NCBI RefSeq assembly: GCF_036702645.1
Contig: NZ_JAUBUO010000016.1
Location: 92,186-152,338, forward strand
Source of the DNA: Microcoleus sp. Aus8_D1
GTDB taxonomy: Bacteria > Cyanobacteriota > Cyanobacteriia > Cyanobacteriales > Microcoleaceae
Direction of reading: 5' to 3'
DNA length: 60,153 bases
Part shown: piece by piece, positions 11,172-60,153 of the stretch
Layout: every line of letters begins with the position of its first letter
How positions within the stretch are numbered: the first letter of the stretch is position 1
Notes under the pieces: model-generated
What the model was told of the DNA's origin: nothing
The model's database searches: none
Seen by the model: only the letters and a program-made list of their open reading frames with translations
Translations under genes and position numbers: made by a program

Positions 11172-11238
11172 CGACAAAACTTACGCAACTTCTTGAGAGC
11201 GCAAAAACTCAGCAAGTCTATTTGTAGCATTTCGTAGG

Positions 11239-11272
11239 GGCAATCCCCCCGTGGTTGCCCCTATTTTTTTGA
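11239..11272 (+). terminator. Hairpin GGGGCAA-tccccccgtgg-TTGCCCC followed by a T-run; putative intrinsic terminator
   Basis: 7-bp stem then TATTTTTTT. The same core tccccccgtggttgcccc recurs at 40744..40762. Confidence 0.35.
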
Positions 11273-40720: not shown

Positions 40721-40861
40721 ATACTGGGGGATTGTAGGGGCTTTCCCCCCGTGGTTGCCCCCTGCTGCTGCAGAAGAGTGGTTGCCCCCTGCTGCTGCAG
40801 AAGAGGGTAGGCACGGCGAGGCACTACCCCTACAAATTGTTCGCAATTCATAATTGAGGAC

Positions 40862-46700: not shown

Positions 46701-47607
46701 AGATGACAATACGATGATTAAATTGGCATATAGCTTGTCAAAATCAGTAACAAACAACTCTCTGATACTCGCAAATTTAGATAATTGCGACGAGCTTATT
46801 GGTACTTCTGAGGATGACAATACCTGGAGAAATGCCCTAAATATCTTAGGAAAAATCGAAAAAGATAACTCAGTTGCGCTCTCAGCTTTAGTCGAGTTAA
46901 TCGGTACTTTTCAGGATAAAAATACCCGGAGGAGAGCGACTGTAAGCCTAGGGCAAATATGCAAAAACAACCCGGATGCGATCGCCGCTTTAGTCGAGTT
47001 AATCAGCAATTCAGGTGATAGACATATCCGTAGTATAGCGGCAGATAGCTTAGGTGAAATCATGAAAGATAAACACTTCGCGATCGCAGTCTCTGGTTTG
47101 AAAGATTGCCTAACTTCCGAAATCTACAAAAACGACTTTACTCTTTATCACAAGTGCTGCCTCGTCATCTCTGACTGTGCCCAAAGCAAGACTTACCCAG
47201 AATTTTATCAAGCATGGCACACTCAACCCACCAATTCCCCAATACCGGACAACCACCCACAAAATCCAGATATCCCCACACTCCTAAAACAACTCAAACC
47301 CACAGATAAAACCTTCCCCGTACCCCTCAACATTCGCGCGTTAGAAGGCGAAACCGATATAAGCCCGATCGCCCAAGAACTCTGTACCCAACTATATCAA
47401 ACAATCTTCCCCGCAGATACAGACATCCCCGCCATCCGCAACGCCCCGGAATTCAAGCGATTAATCCCCCAACTCAAACACCGGCTGCAAAAACCGCACA
47501 TCGCCTTAATCTTGCACTCGTGCCCGTGCGAAAATGCGCTTTCGTCTTTCACCCGCAAACTCGCCGACTCTCACATGGGTATTCATATCGCCTGGATTAG
47601 CGATTAA
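43786..47607 (+). CDS. STAND NTPase: unknown N-terminal domain + NACHT + C-terminal HEAT (PBS-lyase-type) repeats
   Basis: Walker A GEPGAGKTTLLRQIANW and Walker B VWLVLDGADEM. At least 8 HEAT-like repeats (AIEALVELIRSSQDEDTWKQAAKSLGEIG...). Start at Met47 of the track ORF, after the CAGGAGAA RBS. Confidence 0.85.
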   Translation: MSDPITLGLLFTVAWQGILGTQVNDAAKHLCLTGIKKISRNGKIVNHDLEKALKTSFLKAQQQIASECKQEIDPKNSANRESFSYSLQDRRRDFDWLKRKLEKLKLDLEQVNKETVPSGIPIEGLDEIELLLTATDELKQNRVAAVEQKLLEVALENCDVAHYKTKLEQELFALVAAYFAQEIKENEKVFQIFTGQTLTRIDTTTQEMYAWLEEIVQKSRIVYQPIDWRAICQQILDEKEQQRLSSNQLTFGDRQIDDVYVPLGLVERHKVTQRREDLAAEEGSDLYREKEVTQTFENKEFLEQVLRGGSSPKSNGKRLAIIGEPGAGKTTLLRQIANWVAEEISEAIVIWVALADLQGKDLESYLFDTWLLAAIKRVGKAEATADIKDDFLAQFNAERVWLVLDGADEMAAGDGNPLAEIQRQVRTGGCVQRARIVLSCRQNVWDAIGSALDTFDTYRTLEFSYPEQVEMFIDKWFGTPPNPPLLRGGTREEGDTFARGLSTQATGEGNTLTPPLARGAGGVLPPSIPTQNTEETLTPPLARGAGGVLSQQLREALAASGKERIQDLVKNPLRCSLLCGTWQSLDGDLPDTKAKLYRRFVTALYQWKEPRLNWSQQQDLNAALGKLALAGMLNETDRFQLRESVGYRVMGASQFEIACRLGWLNLVARDAETAEGIYAFYHPTFQEYFAALAAEDWHFFLNHFPGNPQHPDARYRIFEKQWKEVILLWLGREEVGKEEKEAFIKALVEFEDGCGKFYGDRAYFLAAAGIAEFKDCSFADEIVSQVIKWGFGYFDEEKQEWQTFIAPLAESSWDILKETDRKRAIVALVESIRNSGNEKTRWIAANILGEISKDNPVAIEAFVELIRNSQDENTRREAAASLGTIGKSNPVAIEALVELIRSSQDEDTWKQAAKSLGEIGEDNPVAISGLVKLIRNSGEQNTRMTAANSLGKIDINNLVILVNFDELSATSEDDNTMIKLAYSLSKSVTNNSLILANLDNCDELIGTSEDDNTWRNALNILGKIEKDNSVALSALVELIGTFQDKNTRRRATVSLGQICKNNPDAIAALVELISNSGDRHIRSIAADSLGEIMKDKHFAIAVSGLKDCLTSEIYKNDFTLYHKCCLVISDCAQSKTYPEFYQAWHTQPTNSPIPDNHPQNPDIPTLLKQLKPTDKTFPVPLNIRALEGETDISPIAQELCTQLYQTIFPADTDIPAIRNAPEFKRLIPQLKHRLQKPHIALILHSCPCENALSSFTRKLADSHMGIHIAWISD
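45232..45425. repeat. Three copies of a near-palindromic mini-element CCCCCCTT(A/G)GC(A/T)AAGGGGGG embedded in frame in the NACHT gene
   Basis: 45232-45252 in one orientation; 45315-45352 and 45388-45425 as a 38-bp direct repeat in the other. They encode PPLLRGG / PPLARGAGG. Confidence 0.75.
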
Positions 47608-47640
47608 GCAGGCGAAAACCATGTTATACTGATTTTATGG

Positions 47641-47666
47641 TTTAACCCCTTAAATAAGGGGTTAAA
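47641..47666. repeat. Island palindrome family, copy 1 (TTTAACCCCTTAAATAAGGGGTTAAA)
   Basis: Perfect 11-bp arms. Related copies at 49302, 51469, 51682, 54661 and 57558. Confidence 0.8.
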
Positions 47667-47750
47667 TACCAGGCACATTCTAGTCATTATCTAGAAAGTA
47701 TCTAGAAACCCAGAACCTTGACAAACCAATAGTCACAGAGAGAACCTACC

Positions 47751-49202
47751 ATGAAAGCTCAATCTCAAAAGGCACAGTCCGCTTGTGATGTATCTGTTTA
47801 CTCTGACAAAGGGTCACTCGCCTTGCGCTTCCCCAAGCGCCATAGCACCCTGTGGGAGCTACTAGACGGTAAATCACTCAAGGGTAAGCCTAAGTGCTTA
47901 GGAATAGGCAAATACGGCTACTCTGATACCCCAGAGGATTGGAAGCGGGCTAGCCAAATTGCTGCTGCGATGGAGGCTGATTTAGACCATCCAGAGTGGG
48001 AAAAGCTGTTTGACCCTACCCTTGCTAAATATGGCTTAGGAGGGGGCAAATATGCTAAGTTAGCTGATGTACTTCAATTGCCGGGTACGACTCAAACCGT
48101 ACCTGAGATAACCGTAGGTGCGATGTGGGAAGCATATCTATTGTGGAAAAAAACAACCATAGAAGAAACTACTTTTGACACAACGTACAAAAAATATGGC
48201 AACATAATTTACGGTAAAATTTTTCAAAACAAGGGTAGTCAGTTGACACTATCTGACAACCCGCTAGCTACCGTTCATTTAAATGACAAACAGGGTATTG
48301 AAACCGCGCTTGATTCAATAACATCCAAACTCAAAACTTTGAGTTTGAGAGCGTTAAATCAAGCCTTTGAGTATGCCCAATCAAAAGGATTAATCGTTAA
48401 TTCGGCTACTAACAATCCTTTTGCTACTAACAAATTTAGCGTACCTGTTGTCACAACACAGCAAAAGTATGCTGACAAAGTAGTTAATGGTGAGATTGTA
48501 GAATGGCATGAAGTAGAGGATGAGAAAGCTTTAGAGAATGATAAGCGTGCCTTTACTAAGGATGAACGTGATATCATCATCAAAGCGTTTTATGAGTCTG
48601 ATAGCAATAGAACTCGCAAAGGTTCTATCATGTTTGCACCGTTTATCGAATTTCTGTTTTTAACGGGTTGTCGCCCTAGCGAAGTTTATGCACTAACTTG
48701 GCGTGACGTTAATTTTGAACGTCATGTTATCAAAATTAGTAAGTCACTAGGTGCTTCTACTCGCAAGGTTAAAAACACTAAGACGGGCGAGAGCCGCTTG
48801 TTTTATTTTGAAGATTTTGAACGTTTAAAAGCTTTGTTGTTAGAAATTAAAGGCGACAAAACAGAGGGTTTAATTTTTTCAAATGCCAATGGGGGGTATA
48901 TAGATACTTCTTCCCTAGGGAGAGTTTGGCGTGATTATGTAAAAAAACAAACTCTCAAATCAGGGGAAGAAGTAACGTATTTCTATCCCGGTATAGTCTC
49001 ACAATTGGCTCGTGAAGGCAAAATTAGTGGTTATTTAGCGTCCTATCATTGCCGTCACACTTACATCACGCTAACCGCGCAAGCTAATAGCCACAATAAC
49101 AACGCTCTGTTACGCATAGCTAGCAGTTGTGGCAACAGTGTGGATGTGATTCTAAGACATTACTTAGGTATTAATGAGTCAACAGAGTTAGTAGTAGTCT
49201 AA
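47751..49202 (+). CDS. int: Tyrosine-type site-specific recombinase / integrase
   Basis: Catalytic box SYHCRHTYITL (HxxR) and VILRHYLG (Tyr); LTGCRPSEVYALTWRDV arm. First gene of the HIP1-free, AT-rich region. Confidence 0.85.
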   Translation: MKAQSQKAQSACDVSVYSDKGSLALRFPKRHSTLWELLDGKSLKGKPKCLGIGKYGYSDTPEDWKRASQIAAAMEADLDHPEWEKLFDPTLAKYGLGGGKYAKLADVLQLPGTTQTVPEITVGAMWEAYLLWKKTTIEETTFDTTYKKYGNIIYGKIFQNKGSQLTLSDNPLATVHLNDKQGIETALDSITSKLKTLSLRALNQAFEYAQSKGLIVNSATNNPFATNKFSVPVVTTQQKYADKVVNGEIVEWHEVEDEKALENDKRAFTKDERDIIIKAFYESDSNRTRKGSIMFAPFIEFLFLTGCRPSEVYALTWRDVNFERHVIKISKSLGASTRKVKNTKTGESRLFYFEDFERLKALLLEIKGDKTEGLIFSNANGGYIDTSSLGRVWRDYVKKQTLKSGEEVTYFYPGIVSQLAREGKISGYLASYHCRHTYITLTAQANSHNNNALLRIASSCGNSVDVILRHYLGINESTELVVV

Positions 49203-49221
49203 CCCTACCCAGTACATACCT

Positions 49222-49249
49222 ACCTACCCTAACCCGGTAGGTTTTTTTG
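49222..49249 (+). terminator. Intrinsic terminator after the integrase gene
   Basis: ACCTACC-ctaaccc-GGTAGGT followed by TTTTTT. Confidence 0.55.
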
Positions 49250-49738
49250 TGCCTACTTACTGAGTGAACCTGTAGGTCATATCATCAGTAAATATATAAC
49301 TTTATCCCCCCCAATATGGGGGGATAAATAATAAAAATATTACAGCTACTAATCAAAACTGAACCCCCCTATATTTAAATAGATAAGTTTTATTAATGAA
49401 GTGAGTCGCTATCCTTTCCCTTCATTTTTTGCAATTTATAATCACTCATGCTCTTAATCGCCACAGAAACAGCCATTTTTGCCTCCTTTAAGGCTTGAAA
49501 GGTACAAAACCCTGGGGGGGATTTATTTTTCTTTACTACCTCTTTCTACCCACTATTTTTGTATCTCTCTGTTCATGTTTTTTATCTAGTTAGTTAGTTC
49601 TAATGCAATATTTCCGTTACATTGATTTACAATTACTCTAATTTTAATATTAATAAAACTTATCTATTGTACTCCCCTATACTCGTAAATGTTTACAAAT
49701 CTTACATATGTACATCACTTAAATAACACTGTTTAATG

Positions 49739-49767
49739 TTGACAACGATGTTACCAACCTATAAAGT
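49739..49767 (+). promoter_or_regulatory. Near-consensus sigma70-type promoter TTGACA-N17-TAAAGT inside the gene-poor AT-rich stretch
   Basis: Seen directly. No plus-strand ORF for ~800 bp downstream, so it may drive an ncRNA, possibly antisense to minus ORF 49862..50101. Confidence 0.3.
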
Positions 49768-50556
49768 TCCGTAATCCTGTACTACTAAATCCGCTTTATT
49801 TACCCACAAAAAAGTAGACCAACTGAGATTGACCTACTTTGATTTACGGTTTAATAGTGCTTTAGCCGTTACAGTAAACAAAACGGATAATAGCACCTTG
49901 TGGTTTCAAATGTTGGTTGTGTTCGTCTAATTTAATTTTCCACCATCTCCGACGGCATCTATCAATTATGCTATCGCCATCCTTAAGCGCTTCTAGCTTA
50001 TAAGCAGGGACGTACCTATTCTTTGTCAGGTAATGAGATGTTACTATGTGTTCCCAATAATGGGGCATAGAGACGGGTGTATTCTCGTAATTCACAATCA
50101 TTCTGCCACTTCCTTGTTCAGAATACTTTGCGCTTAAATCGCTGGCTGTTTTCAGTATATGTCAAAATATTTCAAAACCATATAGGTTTACAAAATCAGT
50201 ATAGCGTTAAAATGGACTAAAACAGGGTGTAAATAGTAAATATAAAAATAGCCAATAAAAAACCCTCCTATTCAACTTTTTTGTACCTTTTAGTCTAATT
50301 AAGTAAGCTATAATAAATAAACCATATTAGCGACTTACGCTACAAACAAAGGTTATATAACGAACTTTTATTTTTTCTGTACCATTACCCGTAACAAAAC
50401 TTTACAGAACTTAACGGTTATACCGTTGACAAGCGGCTGCAAACCTGCAATCGTGAGTAACTAAGGAAGATTGATGCGCGGTAATGCGGTTTTGACGAAC
50501 CACACTAACCACGACTTCCCCAAACGTTTACAACCAACGATTGGAACAGAATAACT

Positions 50557-51162
50557 ATGACAGATTTACCGTTATCAAGTGATTTGCGATCGCAAATCGT
50601 AACGTCCGCGTTAGAAGAGCGAGAAGAATACTGTTCGGCACGTAAAAGCCTAGGTTTCAACTCAGGTTTTGTTTTTGGTAACTTGGGTGCTGGGAGTTTC
50701 GAGTTCTACAAACAGCTTGCTAAGAAACTAAATATAGATTCCTATGCAAAATGTTTCGGCAATGTAACCATGACTGAAACATGGAAACGTCTAGTGCATT
50801 ATGAGGGTGAGTTTCCTCCTCCTGAATCGATAGAGCGAACAGAGCGAAAAGCGAAGTTACCGAATGAGAGTCCACATATCGCTCTTAAAAAAGCGACTGT
50901 AATGGAGGAATACTTAGGGAATTCCGACAAAGCTCAAATAAACATGGTAACTGACATCACCCCACAAAGTATTTTACAGTTACCGATATTGCCTCTTTCT
51001 TCACTCCATTTTTTACCTCCTTCTCGTGGTTTGTTCTTTGTGATGGTAAGCAAAACAGAACCAAAAGTTATTTATGTAGGCAAATCTCAAAACTTAAAAG
51101 TTTCTTGGGAACCTGTTTATACCCGTAGCAGGTGTCCAATTGCAGGACACAGAAAGCGATAG
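50557..51162 (+). CDS. Hypothetical protein with a GIY-YIG-like C-terminal motif, followed in the same frame after one TAG by ORF 51172..51402
   Basis: LFFVMVSKTEPKVIYVGKSQNLKVSW resembles the GIY...YVG motif. 51172 is in frame with 50557, so this may be a disrupted gene. Confidence 0.35.
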   Translation: MTDLPLSSDLRSQIVTSALEEREEYCSARKSLGFNSGFVFGNLGAGSFEFYKQLAKKLNIDSYAKCFGNVTMTETWKRLVHYEGEFPPPESIERTERKAKLPNESPHIALKKATVMEEYLGNSDKAQINMVTDITPQSILQLPILPLSSLHFLPPSRGLFFVMVSKTEPKVIYVGKSQNLKVSWEPVYTRSRCPIAGHRKR

Positions 51163-51400
51163 GTAACTACCTTGACCAACTTAGGACTTGACTTGTATAT
51201 TAGGTGGATACTTTTACCCGGCGGTAACGAACCTTCTGTGTGGCAAGAAGACATTGACAGTAGCCAACTTTCTTTGTGGCAAGCTCACGCCAACAAAGTG
51301 CTTAGTCCCTTCTTTTTGGGTAGGGAAATAGGAGATGAAATTACTTTAGACTGGGATTTACCAATGCCTCGCCACTGGCAACAAATCTCTAGAAAAGAGT

Positions 51401-51884
51401 AAGTTTGTCAGGTTAGGTAAAGTTAATATGCTAATGAGTCCTTTGGGTAGGGGGACTCATTTTTATTGTTTATCCCCTTATTTAAGGGGTTAAAGTTAAA
51501 TAATAGATTATCAATTATCCTACATATTTTTACTCTCACCAAGTCGAAAATCACTACTCTAGAGTCTGCCAAGCATAGCGATATTTGTACTTTGTGTTAT
51601 GGCCTAAAATCAAAACCGGGTTTTTCACCCCAAAACGTCATTTTAATTTTTTATAAATGGGGGTTTTGGGAGTGTTTATGATTTATCCCCTTATTTAAGG
51701 GGTTAAAGTTAAAGTGCAAGATACTAAGCTAGATTTTAGAGGGTGTGGTGTCTAGATTATGCCTAGAAAGTGACAAGCCACAATTAAGCAATCTCAACAA
51801 CTAGGATAACGTAAATAGGTTAAATGACTAGAAAGTATCTAGAAATCAAGGATAGGATGGCTGAAAGCATTGGTAAATGGTAAC
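51401..51884. repeat. Left arm of the long inverted repeat flanking ppk; carries a 195-bp insertion (51496..51690) bounded by duplicated palindromes
   Basis: Reverse complement of 54487..54753 aligns at >95% identity apart from the insertion. Confidence 0.85.
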
Positions 51885-52051
51885 TAATCTGGATTAGCGC
51901 CACACCGCTGGAATTGCCGTTAACAGGTTTTGCGGTGGATGCAGAGGATTTGTTGGAGGCGGTGCAGGATTGGATTGCGGGGATTGGTGCGTGATATGAT
52001 GTTATGCCTTTGGGGCGGGCTAGAAGCCCACCCCACAAGAGTTTATACTCG

Positions 52052-52152
52052 TTACCAGGCTCTGCCTGGTAACGCAGATCCGGGAGGCTCTGCCTCCATT
52101 TTACCAGCCGAGGCAGAGCCTCTGAATATGGGTTCCAAGGCTCTGCCTTGGA
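52052..52152. promoter_or_regulatory. Cluster of four hairpins in the ppk leader with a conserved GGCTCTGCC core and covarying stems
   Basis: ttaccaggCTCTGcctggtaa (52052-52072), ggaggCTCTGcctcc (52083-52097), gaggCAGAGcctc (52110-52122, opposite polarity), ttccaaggCTCTGccttggaa (52132-52152). Confidence 0.4.
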
Positions 52153-52305
52153 ACCAGTTAAGTTTTAATTTCTTCAACCCCTCTGAGCTCGGGTTTTGTC
52201 TGTGTCGGCGCGATTTCAATCGCCCGCAACCGCCCCACTACCGCAATACTACTGCAATACTAATGGTAAAGATACAATCGAGCCTCCCCAAGACTCCCGC
52301 AAACC

Positions 52306-54486
52306 ATGTCCAAGCAAAAAAAGACCCCAGCCAAAACCTACACCGAAATCAACCTCAGCGACCCGCAATACTACTTCAACCGAGAACAAAGCTGGCTAGA
52401 ATTCAACAACCGCGTGCTCCACGAAGCCCTAGACCCCCGCACGCCCCTCCTAGAAAGACTCAAATTTCTCGCTATTTTTAGCTCAAACTTAGACGAATAC
52501 TTCATGGTGCGAGTAGCCGCACTCAAACAGCAAGTAGAAGCAAAAGTCAGTAAATTGACCTCCGACGGCCGCACGCCCCAAGAACAGCTAGATGCCATCA
52601 ACAAGCGGCTTTTGCCGATGGTTACTCAGCAACACTCGTATTTTGAGCAAACTCTGCGGCCCAAATTAGCAGCAAACGGCATCCACATTCTCGACTACAT
52701 TGACCTCAATCAAGAACAGCGAAATTACTTGCATCGCTACTTCAAAGAACAAGTATTTCCTGTGCTCACACCCCTAGCAGTTGACCCCAGTCATCCCTTC
52801 CCATTTCTATCCAATCTCAGTCTTAATTTAGCAGTAGTTGTCAGAGACCCCGACACCCGCGAAGAACTATTTGCGCGCGTCAAAGTACCGCAGGTTCTGC
52901 CCAGATTTTTGCCCTTACCGGAGGACTTGCAGTGGCAGCAGAGGGGCAAATCTCCTGTGTGGACGGGGGTACCTCTCGAACAGGTAATCGCCCACAATTT
53001 AGAGGCTTTGTTTCCGGGGATGGACATTCAGGAATATCACCCGTTTCGGATTACTCGCAATTCCGATTTGACTGTGGAGGAAGATGAGGCAGATGATTTG
53101 CTGCTGGCCATTGAACAGGAACTCCGCAAACGCCGATTTACAGGTTCTGCGGTGCGCCTGGAAATTCCAGCGATTATGCCGCCTGCACTGCGAGATATGT
53201 TGATGGACGAGTTGGATCTCGGCGAGCAGGATGTTTACGCCGTGGAGGGGCTGCTAGGCCTCAAGGATTTGATGTCTTTTGTCGGGTTGCCGGTACCGGA
53301 ACTCAAAGATCCGCCTTGGACTCCGGTGGTGCCGCCCCGCTTGCGGAACTCGGAACCGCCCAGGATGGTAGGTAAATCGATGTTGGATGTTGAGGAGGGT
53401 GAGGATATTTTCACGGCCATCCGCCAGGGCGATTTGATGCTGCACCATCCCTATCACTCGTTTGCAGCCACTGTCCAGCGGTTTATTACTGAGGCGGCGA
53501 ACGATCGCTCGGTGTTAGCGATTAAGATGACTTTATACCGCACTTCTGGTGATTCGCCGATCGTCAGTTCTTTAATTCAAGCTGCGGAAAACGGCAAGCA
53601 AGTAGCCGTTTTAGTCGAGCTCAAAGCCCGGTTTGACGAAGAAAATAACATTAATTGGGCGCGCAAGTTAGAACAAGCGGGCGTGCACGTTGTCTACGGT
53701 TTGGTGGGACTCAAAACCCACACCAAGGTGGTGATGGTAGTCCGGCGCGAGGACAGTTGCATTCGCCGCTACGTCCACATCGGCACGGGAAATTACAACC
53801 CGAAAACTGCTGGACTGTATACGGATGTGGGTTTGTTGAGTTGTCGCGAAGATTTGGGTGCGGATTTGACGGACTTGTTTAATTATTTAACCGGTTATTC
53901 CCGACAGCTATCTTATCGTAAATTGTTGGTGGCGCCTGTCAATATGCGCGAGCGTTTTTTAGCATTAATCCGCCGCGAAGCCGACTTCTGCCGCTTACAG
54001 GCCGAAGGCGGCACCGGTAGCTGCGGCCGGATTGTCGCTAAAATGAATGCTTTAGTTGACCCTCAAATTATTGTTGCTTTGTACGAAGCTTCCCAAGCGG
54101 GTGTTAAAATTGATTTGATTATCCGGGGGATTTGTTGTTTGCGTCCGGGCGTTGAGGGTGTTAGCGAAAATATCAAAGTTATCAGTATTATCGGCCGCTT
54201 TTTAGAGCATTCTCGGATGTTTTATTTTTTCAACGGCGGCAACGAAGAGGTGTATATTGGTTCTGCTGACTGGATGCAGCGCAATCTCACAAGGCGGGTT
54301 GAGGCGATCGTGCAAGTGGAAGATCCGACTATAGTGATGGAGTTGCAAGAAATTTTGGGTGTGATGTTGGCGGACAACCGCCAAGCTTGGGATTTGCAGT
54401 CTGGGGGACACTACTCTCAGCGACGCCCGCCTGCTAATAACCCGGAGGTGAGCTCTCAGCAAATTTTGATGGATATGGTAAATTAA
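52306..54486 (+). CDS. ppk: Polyphosphate kinase 1
   Basis: DPQYYFNREQSWLEFNNRVL N-terminus and conserved PPK1 histidine regions. GC-rich, unlike the flanking DNA. The stop codon sits at the inner edge of the right inverted repeat. Confidence 0.92.
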   Translation: MSKQKKTPAKTYTEINLSDPQYYFNREQSWLEFNNRVLHEALDPRTPLLERLKFLAIFSSNLDEYFMVRVAALKQQVEAKVSKLTSDGRTPQEQLDAINKRLLPMVTQQHSYFEQTLRPKLAANGIHILDYIDLNQEQRNYLHRYFKEQVFPVLTPLAVDPSHPFPFLSNLSLNLAVVVRDPDTREELFARVKVPQVLPRFLPLPEDLQWQQRGKSPVWTGVPLEQVIAHNLEALFPGMDIQEYHPFRITRNSDLTVEEDEADDLLLAIEQELRKRRFTGSAVRLEIPAIMPPALRDMLMDELDLGEQDVYAVEGLLGLKDLMSFVGLPVPELKDPPWTPVVPPRLRNSEPPRMVGKSMLDVEEGEDIFTAIRQGDLMLHHPYHSFAATVQRFITEAANDRSVLAIKMTLYRTSGDSPIVSSLIQAAENGKQVAVLVELKARFDEENNINWARKLEQAGVHVVYGLVGLKTHTKVVMVVRREDSCIRRYVHIGTGNYNPKTAGLYTDVGLLSCREDLGADLTDLFNYLTGYSRQLSYRKLLVAPVNMRERFLALIRREADFCRLQAEGGTGSCGRIVAKMNALVDPQIIVALYEASQAGVKIDLIIRGICCLRPGVEGVSENIKVISIIGRFLEHSRMFYFFNGGNEEVYIGSADWMQRNLTRRVEAIVQVEDPTIVMELQEILGVMLADNRQAWDLQSGGHYSQRRPPANNPEVSSQQILMDMVN

Positions 54487-54753
54487 CCATTTACCAATGC
54501 TTTCAGCCATCCTATCCTTGATTTCTAGATACATTCTAGTCATTTAACCTATTTACGTCATCCTAGTTGTTGAGTTTGCTTAATTGTGGCTTGTCACTTT
54601 CTAGGCATAATCTAGACACCACACCCTCTAAAATCTAGCTTAGTATCTTGTACTTTAATTTTACCCCCTTAAATAAGGGGATAAACCATAAAAATGAGTC
54701 CCCCTACCCAAAGGACTCATTAGCATATTAACTTTACCTAACCCGACAAACTT
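54487..54753. repeat. Right arm of the long inverted repeat flanking ppk
   Basis: Reverse complement matches 51401..51495 plus 51691..51884. Includes palindrome copy 54661-54686 and hairpin ATGAGTCC...GGACTCAT. Confidence 0.85.
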
Positions 54754-54758
54754 GATAC

Positions 54759-54953
54759 TTAGAGCGGCATAGCCTCATTGTTGCCGATACCAAGATTTAA
54801 CGCTTCAACCTGACTTTTTAACCCCGCGATGTCTGATTCGGTTAAATCCGATTCATTATCCATTTTCAGTTCGTTCTGAATAGCCGCAAGTTGACTCTTA
54901 TGGTTAATTAGAATCTCTAAGATAGCCTTTACAACAGCGAGCAAGGTTTTCAT
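54759..54953 (-). CDS. Hypothetical small acidic protein (64 aa), last gene of the minus-strand operon
   Basis: ORF in the operon context. Confidence 0.3.
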   Translation of the reverse strand: MKTLLAVVKAILEILINHKSQLAAIQNELKMDNESDLTESDIAGLKSQVEALNLGIGNNEAMPL

Positions 54954-55005
54954 GCGATTTATGTCCTATTTGCGGTTCTAAAGTTATTGTAATAGTTGTG
55001 TCCGG

Positions 55006-55209
55006 TTAATTCAACCTTTTAGCTTTGGCAATTTTAAGTTTCTTAACCAAGTCCCGTACAAATGTTTTCATATCTCCTTCAATTTCCAGTCCCATATTGC
55101 GCCGCTCTAAAAGCATATCCAATTCCCGTAGACGTACTAACTCTTCTATTTTTGACTTGACCGCTTTACTGATGTACTTTTTAGTACCTTTATCACCTTT
55201 TTTCGCCAT
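55006..55209 (-). CDS. Hypothetical small Lys-rich basic protein (67 aa), possibly nucleic-acid binding
   Basis: MAKKGDKGTKKYISKAVKSKIEELVRLRELD... Start lies 2 nt from the upstream gene end. Confidence 0.35.
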   Translation of the reverse strand: MAKKGDKGTKKYISKAVKSKIEELVRLRELDMLLERRNMGLEIEGDMKTFVRDLVKKLKIAKAKRLN

Positions 55210-55210
55210 A

Positions 55211-57547
55211 CTACACTCCTCTTAAGGCTTTAGATATTGAGATATTATTGGGGTCAAATTTCCACTTAACAATAGGAATGTTGCTAGGTTGCAACATTTT
55301 ATTTAATACGGCCTCAACTTCATTATCCGTCTTAGCTTTGCTAATATTAATTTTTTTAGGCTCGGATTTTTGAAAACCTTTATGAGATTCATGGATAGTA
55401 AAGCTCACGGGTACATCTTCAGTGTCCAAAATAGGTTCATATCCAATAGCATCTATGATGTATTCAACTTTTCTGCTTGTCTCGGCTAACGCGCTCATTA
55501 ATTGCACTAATTGCATAATTGCACTAATCTCAAACTTCTGACTGCTGTCGCCATTGGACATACTTTCCGCAACCATCTCATATATTTGCGATGCCCACGC
55601 CGTCGCATTGACATTTTGCCACTCGTTGCCTAGTGGCTTGCTAATTGGATTAATGATTAATCCATTGGCAAGCATCCTAAATAATGCTTGCGTCACGGCG
55701 TAATAATCCTCACATTCTTGATTTCCCTTGCCTCCTGCTACCATAAAGGCTTTCGCAACTTTAAATTTATCTTTTTTCATCTTGGCAATACCAAGATATT
55801 TGTATATCTCTTTAATCTCTTTACAACAATCCATAGGTTTTATCTTTGTAGGTTTATTAGGTAAGCGGGGTGGCTTGTATTTAGGTGTTGGTACTGGAAT
55901 ACAAGTGCTATTAGCAATTGTAACCTTAATTGTGTGGGTATATTCATAAAATGCCCACACTCCACTAGGTTCAAAATGTCCGCCAGTGCTATGATGTAGA
56001 GTTGAAAGGTAATCATACATTGCTTGCTCATCACCTTTCAACTCTACAAGACCACCACCTATACTACGACGTTCAATCAAACCCCACCCACTGACTGTAT
56101 CAGGGCGAGGGTCTACAGGAATATTAACCGTTGTAGACTTGCTTCTTTTGTAATTGTATGTACCAGGATTAGGTTCCACAAGATTCAGGTGCAAAAAGTC
56201 TGTCTTAGAAACAACTGTACCCGTAAGAATACCATTGCTATCATATGTACCGTTTACAATTGAAGAGAAGTTATCCACAACATCTCCAAATTGATAAGGA
56301 GGATTACCCGAATAATCTCCTTTCCAGTCATAATGAATTTTTTCGTAATTGTAAATAAGTTTACAAAAACTTTTTGTACCTATAGGATAGATTGGTGCGG
56401 GTTCGATTGGTGGTCTAGGTGGTTTAGGGAATGGACTCCCTGTTGGAGTCGGAGTTGGCGTAGGCGTAGGCGTAGGCGTTGGAGTAGGTGTATCACGCGG
56501 CCATGGTGATGGTCTAGGTGTTTTGGGACGTGGGTTAGGTTTAGGAGGAGGAGCGGGTTTAGGTGTTTTTGGCGTAGGAGTTTTAGGTATAGCTGTTGGT
56601 TTAGGTGGTTTAGGTGGTTTAGGTGGTTTAGGTGGAGTTGAAGGCTTCTTTAAATTAATTGGCGATGTATCGATTGGTTTTTTAGGGTTTATAGGTGATT
56701 TTTTCTTTAAATCAATTACAGGTTTCTTTTTAAGGTCAATTGGTGATTTTTTCTTTAAATCAATTACAGGTTTCTTTTTAAGATTTGTAGGTGTGCGTTT
56801 TTTCTCGAAACCTGTTGGTTTCTTTTTGGTGTCAAGCTGTGGTTTTTTGTCTGTTTTGGGTTGATCCGGTTTAGGTGTTTTGGGACGTGGGTTAGGTTTA
56901 GGTGTATCTTTAGTAGGTGTATCGGATTTAGGTGTTTTTGGTTGTGGTTTTTTACGTGCAGATTTATTATCACTTGGTGCATTAGGTCTAGGTGGTCTAG
57001 GTGATTTTGGGGAACGTTCAAAGTCTAATCTTGGTAGCTTTAAAGTGCCTTCATTTTGTGGGTCTCCCTTGTCTCTACTAAAAGTGGTACAGGCCTCTAT
57101 AATTCCAATACCAAAACAAGTTTTTAAGGTTTTACTACCACCCGCATCTCGTGCTAATTCAATACCAATACCAAAACCTTGAATCGAAATTGACGCATCG
57201 CCCAGACTACTACCACTTATACCTCCGCCAAAACCCAAAAAACTACCCGCAATGTTACCACCTATGGAATTTATAGTTCCATTGTCATTAAATTGAACAC
57301 TTGCACCTATTTCTGCACCTAATTTATTTTTAGCAGAACCTATGCCTGCGCTAAGTCCTGCACCTTTATTTTCTGGGTCAATATAGCCCGTTACGCGGTT
57401 ATTCCTAATAAACGCATCAATTCCTATTTCTACACTTGCATCAGTACGAATACCGCCTAAAGAGCCTATCGTGCGCTCTCCTTCTAGTGAAAGCTTTACG
57501 GCTCCATTACTACTTTGTTGTTGGCGTGGACTTCTTGGTGTTCTCAT
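55211..57547 (-). CDS. Large ORFan protein: Gly-rich N-terminal domain, ~230-aa Pro/Thr/Lys-rich low-complexity linker with 10-aa repeats (IDLKKKPV), ~400-aa C-terminal domain
   Basis: Clean 778-aa ORF. (TP)n and (PKP)n tracts. Palindrome copy 57558-57583 immediately upstream of its start codon. Confidence 0.6.
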   Translation of the reverse strand: MRTPRSPRQQQSSNGAVKLSLEGERTIGSLGGIRTDASVEIGIDAFIRNNRVTGYIDPENKGAGLSAGIGSAKNKLGAEIGASVQFNDNGTINSIGGNIAGSFLGFGGGISGSSLGDASISIQGFGIGIELARDAGGSKTLKTCFGIGIIEACTTFSRDKGDPQNEGTLKLPRLDFERSPKSPRPPRPNAPSDNKSARKKPQPKTPKSDTPTKDTPKPNPRPKTPKPDQPKTDKKPQLDTKKKPTGFEKKRTPTNLKKKPVIDLKKKSPIDLKKKPVIDLKKKSPINPKKPIDTSPINLKKPSTPPKPPKPPKPPKPTAIPKTPTPKTPKPAPPPKPNPRPKTPRPSPWPRDTPTPTPTPTPTPTPTPTGSPFPKPPRPPIEPAPIYPIGTKSFCKLIYNYEKIHYDWKGDYSGNPPYQFGDVVDNFSSIVNGTYDSNGILTGTVVSKTDFLHLNLVEPNPGTYNYKRSKSTTVNIPVDPRPDTVSGWGLIERRSIGGGLVELKGDEQAMYDYLSTLHHSTGGHFEPSGVWAFYEYTHTIKVTIANSTCIPVPTPKYKPPRLPNKPTKIKPMDCCKEIKEIYKYLGIAKMKKDKFKVAKAFMVAGGKGNQECEDYYAVTQALFRMLANGLIINPISKPLGNEWQNVNATAWASQIYEMVAESMSNGDSSQKFEISAIMQLVQLMSALAETSRKVEYIIDAIGYEPILDTEDVPVSFTIHESHKGFQKSEPKKINISKAKTDNEVEAVLNKMLQPSNIPIVKWKFDPNNISISKALRGV

Positions 57548-57657
57548 ATTTTTATTGTTTACCCCCCTATTTATGGGGGTAAAATGGTTAATTATTAGAA
57601 AATTTATTTAGTTCTATTTTAAAGTAACGTAATGATGCTTTACTTTTATTGATTAAA

Positions 57658-58734
57658 TTAAGCTACGTATTCAATAACTACATAAAAAGGTTTAGAAAGA
57701 ATACCCGCCGAGTTGGCAGATTCGTTAGTAATATAAATATTTGTGGCATCTCTCGCAATAATAGTATTAAAATTAAACTGCTTTCCACATAAAGGAACTA
57801 AAGAATCAGTTGCGTAAAAAACAACTCCACACGCGCTTATTACTTTAGTTGAATTTATTCCGTGGGCTACAAATATTGATGCGCCTTCAGTCGCTGCTGT
57901 AGTACCACTGATTAATTTCTTTTTTATAGCAACATTATCGCCTAATGAGGTAAAACCAAACAGGCGGAAATTTCCACTCGAATCAACACTAAAAATGTTA
58001 GCGACAATAGCGGAATAATTATCTGAAAGCCTCCTCATTAATAAATTTCCCGAGCTTGTCAACCCACAGTCAATCACTTTTTGATTAGTTGGGGCTTGAG
58101 CAGCCGAAAGAAACCAATACCCACCGCCACCGATACCAGTAGCAAACAATCCGGCTTGATTTTCTTTACTTACATCTGCGAGACTTTCTACTCCTTGTGA
58201 GCGAATAGATTGTTTGCTCGTCAACGACAAAGTAAAAATTTTAATGCCGTTGATAACTTGGTTAAGCGAGGCACTAACAAATTCTAAAGGATTGTGCCAC
58301 GTTCTGTCACCTTTTAGTAAATAACTTTCTTCACCTGCGGAGGCTCCCTTAACCAGCCCATTAGTACCGCCTGCAATTGGCGTAGCAGCGCCGAACAAAT
58401 TTAATAGATTTTCTAATGCAGCCAGCCTATTTGTTAATTCTGTTAAATCATTTTTTTTTGAGATTTCTATGGTGCAACCAAAATCAATAGAAATAAAATC
58501 CGTATCCCATAGCAAACCATCACCATAATCGACTAGCTGTATTGCTATTGCATCATTTTTTTCCATTATGCGGGTTGGATATCCTGTATAGCTGCGTAAA
58601 TCTAAATAATCTTTACGTCCCCTATTTACCAAAATTATCTCGGCTGCTTCATTCCAATCACCCGTATTGTTCTTTCGTTTTAATATTTTTAAGCCTATTT
58701 TATTTGAATTTGCTTCTGATTTATTCAACAACAA
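57658..58734 (-). CDS. Hypothetical beta-rich, Gly/Ser/Thr/Asn-rich protein (358 aa); tail-fibre or adhesin-like composition
   Basis: Clean ORF in the operon; no recognisable motif. Confidence 0.5.
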   Translation of the reverse strand: MLLNKSEANSNKIGLKILKRKNNTGDWNEAAEIILVNRGRKDYLDLRSYTGYPTRIMEKNDAIAIQLVDYGDGLLWDTDFISIDFGCTIEISKKNDLTELTNRLAALENLLNLFGAATPIAGGTNGLVKGASAGEESYLLKGDRTWHNPLEFVSASLNQVINGIKIFTLSLTSKQSIRSQGVESLADVSKENQAGLFATGIGGGGYWFLSAAQAPTNQKVIDCGLTSSGNLLMRRLSDNYSAIVANIFSVDSSGNFRLFGFTSLGDNVAIKKKLISGTTAATEGASIFVAHGINSTKVISACGVVFYATDSLVPLCGKQFNFNTIIARDATNIYITNESANSAGILSKPFYVVIEYVA

Positions 58735-58740
58735 AACTTT

Positions 58741-58947
58741 TTATGTGTCAGATTCATCGCCTTCAAATGTTGGAAATTGAGCAATATTAAAACTCCCTAA
58801 ATCCCTACTCGCATTGGCTGTATCTAAATAAATTGCTATACGCTCATCCGCATCAAATGTCATGTCGCGAAAATGAATGATTTCTAAGATCGTACCCGCT
58901 ACATAACTAGGTACAAATTTGGTTCCAAAAGTACGTGTAATTGTCAT
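58741..58947 (-). CDS. Hypothetical 68-aa protein
   Basis: Packed between operon genes with 6-10-nt spacers. Confidence 0.4.
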   Translation of the reverse strand: MTITRTFGTKFVPSYVAGTILEIIHFRDMTFDADERIAIYLDTANASRDLGSFNIAQFPTFEGDESDT

Positions 58948-58957
58948 TGGTTTCCTC

Positions 58958-59920
58958 TTAAGTTAGTAAAATAAAATCAGACAAGCCGTCACCAAAACCT
59001 TCGATAAGCCCTTCTAAGAGGTTGCCAAATGCAGGGTCTTTTTCTGTAATCTTTTCAACCTTATCCTCTACTTTTTGTGCAATACTCCAAGTTTGGCTTT
59101 CTTGTAAGCCCCAATTTTTAATCTTTTCATCAATAACTTTAATACCAGTGCGGACATTTTGTCGCGCATATTTTCGCAATTCTAAGTAACCTAACTTACC
59201 CGCTAGCGTTGTCGCGTATCTCATAAAAATGTTGGCAAGCTGCGAAAGCTCTTCTACTAATTCTTCCTCAATATTACTACCGTCTTGTTTCGCCGTAATT
59301 ATTAATGCGGCGGTAGCGGTAATTGAAATATTTAATTTAGGATTAGCTTTCCCTCCTCCTAGTGCAAGGCCTGCTAACATTCTACCTGTGCTTTCACCTA
59401 AATTATTAAGAAAACCTAGATAAGAACCATTCAATTCTGCGAGTATCGCAGCATCAGACTTTGCCCAATCGATATTATATACCGTATTACCAGTAGATAC
59501 TATTGCCTGTTGCAAAGTTGGTAGCATTAAACTTACCGCAACCCCACCTATTTTTATAGCTCCTAACGATGTCCACATAGCAGAAATACCCGATGATGCT
59601 ACAGCAAATAAGCCACTTGCAGACCCAATAAACCAACCTGCTACCGCTACCGCACCCGCGCCTGCAAGCGCACTTTTGGGGTCATCTCGAAACCATTGTT
59701 TGAATATGTCCCAATCACCCCTACCAATAGCGCTAAGAAGTTCTTTCCCGCCCTCAAACATTCGTTTACCTAAATCAATAGCAGATGAAATTCCCGATTT
59801 TATCGCACTCCATACTGCACCTGCTGCATCTTGTATCCATTTGTCAGGAGTGACACCTTCCAAAGAAAAGGCGAGTGCACTGGATTCTAGAGTTACGCCT
59901 GAGTTTGTATTTGTAACCAT
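58958..59920 (-). CDS. Hypothetical protein with a hydrophobic Gly/Ala-rich central segment (probable 2-3 TM helices, GxxxG-rich)
   Basis: AGAGAVAVAGWFIGSASGLFAVASSGISAMWTSLGAIKIGGVAVSLMLP. Confidence 0.5.
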   Translation of the reverse strand: MVTNTNSGVTLESSALAFSLEGVTPDKWIQDAAGAVWSAIKSGISSAIDLGKRMFEGGKELLSAIGRGDWDIFKQWFRDDPKSALAGAGAVAVAGWFIGSASGLFAVASSGISAMWTSLGAIKIGGVAVSLMLPTLQQAIVSTGNTVYNIDWAKSDAAILAELNGSYLGFLNNLGESTGRMLAGLALGGGKANPKLNISITATAALIITAKQDGSNIEEELVEELSQLANIFMRYATTLAGKLGYLELRKYARQNVRTGIKVIDEKIKNWGLQESQTWSIAQKVEDKVEKITEKDPAFGNLLEGLIEGFGDGLSDFILLT

Positions 59921-59924
59921 AATT

Positions 59925-60153
59925 TTAAGTGATTAACCATTCTGTAGCATTCTCTGAAATTGTACCGTTTGTTCCTAGTAAAGTAGCATAAGGTAATGAT
60001 AAATTACCAGAAAAAATACAAAGCGAGTAATCAAAACTCATTTGTACCCCAGTTACTCTTTGAGGATTTTTAGTAACGTTTTTTTGCCAAACTAATGCGT
60101 AACTAATTGCGTCAATAAAATATTGAGCTAACGTAGTCCCTTTAATAGTCCCT
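59925..60153 (-). CDS. Partial CDS (C-terminal end in window); first visible gene of the minus-strand operon
   Basis: Minus-strand frame open from the window edge to a TAA complementary to 59925-59927 (...GTNGTISENATEWLIT*). Confidence 0.4.
   Translation of the reverse strand, partial: GTIKGTTLAQYFIDAISYALVWQKNVTKNPQRVTGVQMSFDYSLCIFSGNLSLPYATLLGTNGTISENATEWLIT

Follow-up and report, generated by a model that had tools for sequence, protein, structure and literature searches.

Background

Dispersed sites confined to one kind of element have been described before in some phages, and the closest precedents for the palindromes described here are the repeats of the Cluster O and Cluster A mycobacteriophages. 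The Cluster O repeat is a 17-bp palindrome, TGTTCGG-N3-CCGAACA, that has been interpreted as a site for a dimeric protein, its function being left open (PMC4351075). The stoperators of Cluster A phages (L5, Bxb1) occur singly as asymmetric 13-bp sites oriented with transcription, are bound by a monomer, co-vary with their repressor and are proposed to block elongation and silence the prophage (PMC6550527, PMC9283540).

The palindromes of the window (the whole stretch of 60,153 nucleotides of Microcoleus sp. Aus8_D1 DNA that was analysed) and of related Microcoleus elements share with the Cluster O repeats the presence of many copies per element genome and none in the host, an A/T-rich centre (AAA/TTT in Cluster O), the lack of a consistent orientation relative to transcription, the location of many copies in short intergenic gaps, mostly away from promoters, and the bracketing of indels between relatives by pairs of repeats. 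They differ in having longer arms (9-12 bp) and 6-10 copies per roughly 16 kb rather than >30 per roughly 70 kb, in being nearly all intergenic, in half-sites that also occur in tandem, in a motif that is wholly replaced between sister lineages, and in residing in small, integrative, ORFan-built elements of a cyanobacterial host. The Microcoleus sites fall in the same descriptive class as the Cluster O repeats, a placement that implies no homology. With the Cluster A stoperators they share restriction to the element, dispersal of many copies in short intergenic regions within operons with none in the host flanks, and a motif that co-varies with lineage, but they are paired half-sites, mostly palindromic and flippable, and not single asymmetric 13-bp sites in one orientation (the unit is flipped between the related loci L008 and L025). 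No repressor homologue of the Cluster A type is recognisable in the Microcoleus elements.

On IncP plasmids, about a dozen identical palindromic operators, some of them far from promoters, serve one global regulator, the ParB-family protein KorB. The Microcoleus palindromes are similarly scattered over the backbone of a mobile element, but no ParB/KorB domain was recorded in the Microcoleus elements, and the similarity between TTAGGCGGCTAA and the KorB operator, which we take to be TTTAGCSGCTAAA, is a lead only. REP/BIME repeats are also short palindromic units that lie at gene 3' ends or within operons and avoid divergent promoter regions, and in REP/BIME-RAYT systems, as here, palindromes flank an enzyme gene and co-vary with the enzyme. 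REPs, however, occur host-wide in hundreds of copies and depend on an HUH Y1 transposase, whereas the Microcoleus sites are confined to elements that have no such enzyme.

Two mobile elements and the host DNA between them

The sequence-only reading described a single island, with ppk enclosed between a left and a right inverted repeat. This "island" is two virus-like mobile elements, E1 and E2, inserted separately in the Microcoleus chromosome; ppk is host DNA, and what had been read as inverted repeats are the right ends of the two elements, which match each other. E1 (47603..51888, plus strand) is a 4.29-kb mini integrative element that carries int, o79, o201 and o76, and its site is empty in L037. 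Its target is the 3' end of a NACHT/HEAT gene, the open reading frame of which picks up again at 51887, past E1, and the 11-bp target repeat CTGGATTAGCG is present as a left copy, the attL core (47592..47602, plus strand), and a right copy, the attR core (51889..51899, plus strand). The int gene (47751..49202, plus strand) encodes a tyrosine recombinase of 483 aa. The host DNA between E1 and E2 (51889..54478, plus strand) consists of the displaced NACHT 3' end and ppk, and is colinear with positions 5470-8054 of L037. E2 (54479..60153, minus strand, continuing past the window end) is the right-hand portion of a prophage-like element that has integrated into the 3' end of ppk; its full-length relatives are about 15-16 kb. 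The right terminus of E2 (54486..54753, minus strand, 268 bp) is 96-97% identical to the terminus of E1 (51401-51500 plus 51675-51881).

The reconstructed attP has palindrome 1 in the P' arm, 38 bp away from the core, and palindromes 4/5 in the P arm, at a distance of about 190 bp. Direct repeats of TCTAGAAAGTATCTAGAAA (47690..47708, plus strand), conserved in all lineages, recur at 51828-51845 and, inverted, at 54517-54539, and are candidate arm-type sites of Int on both att arms. An extended -10-like box, TGTTATACT (47622..47630, plus strand), precedes int; 28 of 32 related loci retain its form, TGnTAYRNT, 8-11 nt 5' of the lineage-specific paired repeat.

The palindrome family in the window

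All six palindromes that had been reported from the sequence were located, the fifth of them starting at 54660, and all six lie outside genes, as had been stated. The form common to them, none of which is assigned to a strand, is TTTA-n-CCCC(C)-TTA, a 2-nt centre and TAA-GGGG(G)-n-TAAA. The geometry is 12 + 2 + 12, one base fewer than the N3 centre originally given, and because of that surplus base the N3 pattern as printed matches only one copy, even with three mismatches allowed.

Palindrome 1 (47641-47666, TTTAACCCCTTAAATAAGGGGTTAAA) lies 38 bp from the att core within the P' arm of E1, 84 nt 5' of the int ATG and 10 nt 3' of the extended -10-like box. Palindrome 2 (49302-49329, TTTATCCCCCCCAATATGGGGGGATAAA) lies 100 nt past the int stop codon, 3' of the int terminator, and is followed at 49363-49375 by a lone, degenerate half-site that is probably a seventh copy of the family. 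Palindromes 3 (51469-51494) and 4 (51682-51707), both TTTATCCCCTTATTTAAGGGGTTAAA, are each contained in an identical 32-nt direct repeat, of which they mark the first and second copies; palindrome 3 is in the E1 right terminus, directly 3' of a canonical terminator, and the 213-bp segment between the two is missing from the otherwise matching E2 terminus. Palindrome 5 (54660-54685, TTTACCCCCTTAAATAAGGGGATAAA) is in the E2 right terminus, past the terminator of the last E2 gene. Palindrome 6 (57558-57584, TTTACCCCCCTATTTATGGGGGTAAAA) is in the late/structural operon of E2, 10 nt 5' of the ATG of the 778-aa gene, with a tail-fibre-like 358-aa gene on its other side. Palindromes 2 (C7/G6) and 6 are diverged members with longer C/G runs.

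A scan of the window for CCCCTTA-N(1-8)-TAAGGGG found four copies compared to 0.01 expected by chance. The density of the family is six copies in 12.5 kb versus none in the remaining 47 kb of the window, so the claim that no copy precedes them holds for the CCCC family. Three further palindromes of a C-run and a G-run, at 45231, 45325 and 45400, are members of another repeat and are located inside the coding sequence of the NACHT gene.

Distribution in related elements

Related elements in other Microcoleus genomes have 4-10 sites apiece, the first about 25 bp inside the left end. Scanning related elements for the motif had been proposed as a check, and the sites proved to be confined to the elements: at 14 related loci, 56 paired half-sites were found on the element side and none in 147 kb of upstream host flank. 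When 241 million metagenome records were scanned for the exact motif, six contigs matched, all six of them with genes of this element family; a scan of a viral contig collection for the motif gave zero matches.

The motif co-varies with element lineage, such that site positions are kept while sequence differs. The CCCC..GGGG motif is found in the window, L038, L048 and L049, TAGCCGCC-N5-GGCGGCTA in L005-L014, L025 and L046, and TAGCTACCTAC in L017 and L047. Gene order is largely syntenic between elements and exact site positions drift between lineages; a site is always present upstream and downstream of int in about 30 loci, although its sequence has turned over completely.

Conservation and placement of the half-sites

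Each site is a pair of half-sites of 9-12 bp, the half-site of the window lineage being TTTAnCCCCnTTA (about 12 bp). The CCCC type has a 12+2+12 geometry, with a 2-nt centre, mostly AA/TT, in 25 of 29 sites; that of the GGCGGC type is 9+5+9. The arms conserve sequence, not pairing: deviations in one arm outnumber compensatory ones by 64 to 5 among 50 GGCGGC-type sites and by 38 to 12 among CCCC-type sites, and the arms are near-invariant across elements that share about 72% identity in the neighbouring DNA. Conservation in the GGCGGC lineage extends over about 70 bp, flanks included, whatever the gene context, for which copying or gene conversion could be responsible instead.

The half-sites are modular, being found inverted, tandem or everted. 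Tandem or everted half-sites take the place of the palindrome at the int-upstream position in eight lineages, and in L038, L048 and L049 the gap between the tail-fibre-like gene and a 754-aa gene, which is the position of palindrome 6, holds tandem half-sites. The C-rich strand may be sense or antisense, and between L008 and L025 the entire unit of roughly 56 bp is flipped. A stable hairpin of -10 to -19 kcal/mol is predicted for about 80% of sites, but the tandem and everted arrangements and the occurrence of the C-rich strand on either side argue against an RNA hairpin.

Sites begin 0-30 nt past stop codons where the neighbouring genes are co-directional or convergent, and none was found in the divergent promoter gaps examined (L038 8148-8263; L046 4955-5070 and 7619-7765), which indicates that they are not classical promoter operators. 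The suggestion that they are transcription terminators is not supported. The stem of an intrinsic terminator is present and the U-tract on the sense strand is absent (one of the six has a weak T-rich tail); a terminator scan flags one palindrome in six; the sites of L046 have no U-tract; canonical terminators at 49222, 51433 and 54721 adjoin palindromes 2, 3 and 5; and at the same positions relatives have tandem versions that form no hairpin.

A putative element-encoded binding protein

From these comparisons of sequence, the palindromes may tentatively be regarded as dispersed binding sites for a putative element-encoded protein, with the function of stoperator-like roadblocks or insulators. 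A sequence-specific protein encoded by the roughly 15-16-kb prophage-like elements of Microcoleus would recognise the sites on double-stranded DNA just within the element borders, to either side of int and in short post-stop gaps inside operons. The bound protein would block or insulate transcription, namely read-through from the host and between modules, and at int it would cover the start region of the conserved extended -10 promoter, an action analogous to the stoperator system of the Cluster A mycobacteriophages. The mini-element E1 has the same sites and att arm as the full-length E2, and so the same protein would control it, in the manner of a satellite.

The original proposal of operators for an island-encoded regulator therefore survives in part, as the best fit to the comparative data, but a search of the element genes yields no binding protein. 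Pfam, PHROG and NCBIfam searches left nearly all element genes without a match and found no DNA-binding protein, and there was no profile support for our own reading of g91 of L038 and a 92-aa protein of L046 as RHH-like. The small basic protein (55006-55209; o67/g85) that had been put forward as the binder does not follow motif type: its identity to the counterpart in L038, where the motif is the same, is 36%, and the counterpart in L046, where the motif differs, shares 37% identity with that L038 protein.

Alternative explanations

It is unlikely that the sites are cis-acting nucleic-acid hairpins that serve as protein-independent pause or termination signals or as REP-like stabilisers of mRNA 3' ends, with duplication and gene conversion accounting for their uniformity. 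Positions 0-30 nt past stop codons, avoidance of divergent promoter gaps, predicted RNA hairpins of -9.7 to -18.8 kcal/mol (lower than most shuffles), conserved flanks within a 56-70-bp unit and, to our knowledge, the lack of Rho in Cyanobacteria are consistent with such hairpins; missing sense-strand U-tracts, the single palindrome of six flagged by the terminator scan, the canonical terminators next to palindromes 2, 3 and 5, the tandem, non-pairing versions at orthologous positions, and the great excess of single-arm over compensatory changes, with arm sequence kept between diverged elements, are not. A unit of about 56-70 bp with flanks that occurs regardless of neighbouring genes, flips in orientation, shifts in position between lineages and avoids promoter gaps could also be a selfish or neutral REP/MITE-like micro-repeat, tolerated in non-promoter gaps, homogenised by gene conversion and functionless for the element. 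This is improbable considering that host DNA has no sites, that the elements have no RAYT or transposase, that a site upstream and downstream of int has always been retained in about 30 loci despite full sequence turnover, and that the arms are constrained in sequence between elements. Still less probable are integration/excision accessory sites only, whether for an excisionase/RDF or of the Int arm type: palindromes 1 and 4/5 do belong to the P' and P arms of the reconstructed attP, at the distances given above, but most copies are 2-10 kb from att, within operons; the TCTAGAA direct repeats, which are conserved and present on both arms, make more convincing candidates for arm sites; a precomputed Arm-DNA-binding Pfam hit (PF12167) is recorded for one Int homologue; and L038 lacks a palindrome in its right arm.

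The hix and gix sites are 26 bp long, 12 + 2 + 12 with a central AA/TT, a geometry that the CCCC type shows and the GGCGGC type (9+5+9) does not. Recombination sites or hot spots at which an element recombinase or homologous recombination inverts, deletes or swaps modules (shufflon-, hix-like or "linker") would also be in keeping with the 213-bp segment bracketed by palindromes 3 and 4 and missing from the E2 terminus, the site-flanked int-att module, whose orientation with respect to the body is reversed from L038-type to L008-type elements, the flipped unit of L008 versus L025, the rearranged segments of E1 versus L041, the many assemblies that break right after int, and the precedent of Cluster O repeats that bracket indels. 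This explanation is nevertheless improbable: the true att crossover is a different sequence, sites accompany tyrosine and serine recombinases alike, tandem half-sites are unable to act as crossover sites, the GGCGGC type is 9+5+9, gene order is mostly syntenic and not shuffled, and Pfam reveals no second recombinase in the complete elements L038, L049 and L046 (a Resolvase domain is absent from these three and present only in the variant L048). In L048, CCCC-type sites occur alongside a serine recombinase instead of an E1-type int, and therefore the palindromes are independent of this int. Hence the earlier suggestion of recombination-associated sites does not extend to crossover, but two sites bracket the 213-bp indel and some lie in att arms. 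There is a slim chance that, within this previously undescribed virus-like family of Microcoleus, an element-encoded enzyme copies, flips and recombines flanked units of about 56-70 bp in a REP/RAYT- or shufflon-like manner, which would drive the int-att inversion, the 213-bp indel and the 3-4-kb int-only mini-elements.

Several specific assignments were rejected. The palindromes are not the att crossover, as the junction repeat is CTGGATTAGCG in E1 and GATATGTTGGAATAAG in L038 and the palindromes are 38-190 bp inside the element. An integron is excluded by the score of the integrase model TIGR02249 (13.8 bits versus a cut-off of 265), and an integron cassette array by the syntenic gene order of the elements and the uniformity of site sequence within each. 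An assignment to REP/RAYT or MITE repeats is contradicted by the lack of any copy in host DNA (47 kb and a further 147 kb), by six of six metagenome matches being element-borne, and by the lack of a transposase Pfam hit in the elements.

Implications

If an element protein binds the sites, they would represent a second, independently evolved instance of genome-wide prophage silencing or insulation by dispersed sites, in cyanobacteria and within an element family composed almost entirely of ORFans, and the wholesale replacement of the motif from one sister lineage to another would mark immunity groups. That replacement also provides natural covariation data with which to look for a new DNA-binding fold. 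The att arms and sites are common to the small int-only elements and a full-length element, which suggests a satellite-helper relationship that would concern bloom- and mat-forming Microcoleus. In the corrected map of the locus ppk is not cargo, and the 3' ends of ppk and the NACHT gene are integration hot spots.

Insertions on either side of ppk

A chimeric query, in which the end of the NACHT/HEAT ORF is joined to the frame that reopens at 51887, matches full-length C-termini of Microcoleus proteins with 83-86% identity and 100% coverage. One of these is at L037, a related locus of another Microcoleus genome and an empty site, in which ppk comes directly after the NACHT-C-terminal gene. BLAST aligns positions 46792-47604, 51889-51995 and 52161-54478 of the window colinearly with L037 4670-5482, 5470-5576 and 5736-8054, respectively; therefore, what the sequence-only reading had treated as a single island is two separate insertions: a mini-element of 4.29 kb (E1, 47603-51888), which interrupts the NACHT gene at its 3' end between two direct copies of the 11-bp sequence CTGGATTAGCG (47592-47602 and 51889-51899), and a prophage-like element (E2) that begins at 54479, within the final codons of ppk, and continues past the end of the window. 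It follows that ppk is host DNA. The supposed 268-bp inverted repeat is really the facing right termini of E1 (51401-51881) and E2 (54486-54753), which are 96-97% identical and enclose 2.6 kb of host sequence consisting of the NACHT 3' remnant and ppk. Homologous recombination between the facing termini might invert ppk. Palindromes 3 and 4, numbered from the left, bracket a 213-bp segment that is missing from E2.

The same insertion position in ppk (window 54470-54486) is used by elements at L023 (2370-2420) and L049 (17792), making the last codons of ppk a recurrent integration site of the family, occupied by three independent elements in both orientations; replacement stop codons are supplied by the inserted elements. 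The tyrosine recombinase encoded by int of E1 is 100% identical to one of unclassified Microcoleus. Between int and o79 lies a 20-nt perfect inverted repeat, AATAGATAAGTTTTATTAAT (49378-49397 and 49649-49668), with arms 251 nt apart, and the order of segments around o79 is rearranged between E1 and L041. The ORF o76 begins 10 nt past o201 (both within 50557-51402), the C-terminal end of which, GLFFVMVSKTEPKVIYVGKSQNLK, resembles a GIY-YIG motif by eye with no profile match; together, the two ORFs may be a disrupted nuclease gene.

Palindromes of the window

All six palindromes (starting at 47641, 49302, 51469, 51682, 54661 and 57558) are present and intergenic, and the earlier statement that the preceding 47 kb has none is borne out by the absence of copies from 1-47600. 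Their shared architecture is an arm of 12 bp, of the form TTTA-n-CCCC(C)-TTA, two central nucleotides (AA, TT or AT) and the arm in inverted form; the consensus first proposed had N3 at the centre in place of N2, one base too many, so that a literal search with it fails. The pattern CCCCTTA-N(1-8)-TAAGGGG has four matches in the window versus 0.01 expected; two members, at 49302 and 57558, have diverged and carry runs of C6-7 and G5-6. Three C-run/G-run palindromes, CCCCCCTTAGCAAGGGGGG (45231-45252, 45325-45343 and 45400-45418), were rejected as family members, being a different repeat in coding sequence; within the NACHT/HEAT ORF they encode repeated 'TPPLARGAGGVL' segments, as though a small cyanobacterial repeat had inserted in frame. 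The sequence GTAGGGGC(A/T)(A/T)TCCCCCCGTGGTTGC, present twice (11237-11258 and 40737-40758), looks like a host repeat with no relation to the island palindromes. Scans of the whole window for tRNA genes and Rfam families gave no matches.

Sites in related elements

Comparable sites occur in seven copies in the L038 element, eight in L049 and ten in L046, with sequences that differ among lineages (CCCC..GGGG, TAGCCGCC-N5-GGCGGCTA, TAGCTACCTAC and others). In 14 loci, the element side has 56 paired half-sites, compared with none in the 147 kb of host flank upstream, and the exact CCCC motif was found in only six metagenomic contigs, every one of which carries element genes. Half-sites are modular: tandem or everted forms replace the palindrome upstream of int in eight lineages and again between the tail-fibre-like and 754-aa genes of L038, L048 and L049, and the sense strand may be either of the two. 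Deviations affecting a single arm outnumber compensatory ones in both the GGCGGC type (64 versus 5) and the CCCC type (38 versus 12); thus, the arms keep sequence rather than pairing. Between elements, the DNA around the sites shares only about 72% identity. Sites start 0-30 nt past stop codons, in gaps between co-directional or convergent genes, and the divergent promoter gaps of the elements have none. A dependence of site orientation on transcription, apparent in L008, is contradicted by L025.

Proposed recognition sites and alternatives

Lineage specificity, modular half-sites, conservation of arm sequence, an att crossover of different sequence, and the persistence of CCCC sites in L048, where a serine recombinase replaces the tyrosine Int of the family, point to a predicted protein of the element that would recognise the sites as double-stranded DNA, and we tentatively prefer this reading. 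All but the first of these features argue against both a hairpin function and Int crossover sites. Hairpins acting in cis are an unlikely explanation, given that half-sites are modular and that arms retain sequence rather than pairing. Of the three roles first considered for the palindromes, that of terminators is not supported, as the sites have no sense-strand U-tract and canonical terminators adjoin three of the window copies. A role as recombination sites is improbable: Int crossover is opposed by the att sequence and by L048, and what keeps recombination or copying models alive is a unit of about 56 bp that is flipped as a whole between L008 and L025, along with the 213-bp segment that palindromes 3 and 4 bracket in E1 and that has no counterpart in E2. 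Selfish repeats would be a scarcely better explanation, and a function solely as att-accessory sites is very doubtful. The remaining role, as operators, survives in altered form, since positions past stop codons and absence from divergent gaps argue against classical promoter operators; such positions favour protein sites that act as roadblocks or insulators, which would then stand at both element borders and at the start region of the int promoter. The stoperators of Cluster A phages (PMC6550527, PMC9283540) are an analogue of the proposed roadblocks. By description, the closest known system is the 17-bp palindromes of Cluster O (PMC4351075), which likewise have an A/T centre, show no bias in orientation, do not occur in the host and bracket indels. 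Dispersed element-specific palindromes are of a known kind, found here within a previously undescribed family of Microcoleus integrative elements.

Neither a fixed Shine-Dalgarno sequence or start codon nor a promoter is carried by the sites as a rule: the GAAGGTAAATA-ATG flank is a start in 4 of 29 GGCGGC-type sites, and a promoter scan found 28 against 29 expected, without enrichment.

No DNA-binding family was recovered when the small island proteins were compared with Pfam, PHROG, NCBIfam and PDB. The small basic protein o67 (55006-55209), previously put forward as a binder, does not track motif type; among the few complete elements, neither o67/g85 nor a g91-like protein covaries convincingly with the sites as a specificity determinant. 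Ribbon-helix-helix proteins tolerate direct as well as inverted subsites, and for this reason two small proteins that resemble them by eye, of 91 aa in L038 (2367-2642) and 92 aa in L046 (1071-1349), both ending in DW, are possible site binders; profile searches gave the pair no ribbon-helix-helix match, and the two align poorly.

The int locus and the element family

All int loci compared have one order: an extended -10-like box, TGnTAYRNT (28 of 32 loci), of which TGTTATACT is a candidate int promoter element; a spacer of 8-11 nt; the lineage-specific paired repeat; conserved TCTAGAA direct repeats; a conserved leader, followed by the int ATG; and the int terminator, after which the same paired repeat recurs. 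Lineages whose Int proteins are 45-75% identical share a highly conserved leader, CAGAACCTTGAYAAAYCAATAGTTTCAGGAG (window 47709-47750), and a similar box, CAGAACCTTGA, follows the downstream sites of L014.

The E2 genes o778, o358, o68, o320, o67 and o64 are syntenic with elements of other Microcoleus genomes, including the 15.76-kb L038 element, bounded by the direct repeat GATATGTTGGAATAAG, the L049 element of M. anatoxicus, the right end of which abuts the 3' end of ppk as E2 does, and the L046 element of M. asticus (at least 16.7 kb). The only recognisable genes are int, a Dam-like methylase, a tail-fibre-like segment and a C39-like or endolysin-like peptidase. Scans of IMG/VR with the palindrome motif and with o320 (single sequence and profile) gave no matches, as did INPHARED tblastn with o320; the INPHARED matches of int were distant and confined to the catalytic domain. 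The elements are therefore labelled only prophage-like. Exact-protein look-ups of the window int and o320 returned no record.

Mini-elements of 3-7 kb that carry int together with the same P arm occur commonly (L005, L006, L009, L013, L030 and E1); these, with L041, consist of int and a few ORFans, and P-arm and palindrome types are common to mini-elements and full-length elements of about 16 kb. The position of E1 beside E2, with nearly identical 268-bp termini, suggests a putative satellite-helper pair. In L048 (15219-15800 and 15998-16310), a variant that retains the structural module and CCCC sites, the tyrosine int and leftward module are replaced by a Resolvase-family serine recombinase of 193 aa, an HU-like gene and 57-bp units arrayed in tandem. 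Many assemblies (contig ends of L010, L016, L017, L028, L029 and L032) break off within 0.1-1.5 kb past int, which would fit repeats or structural heterogeneity at that point.
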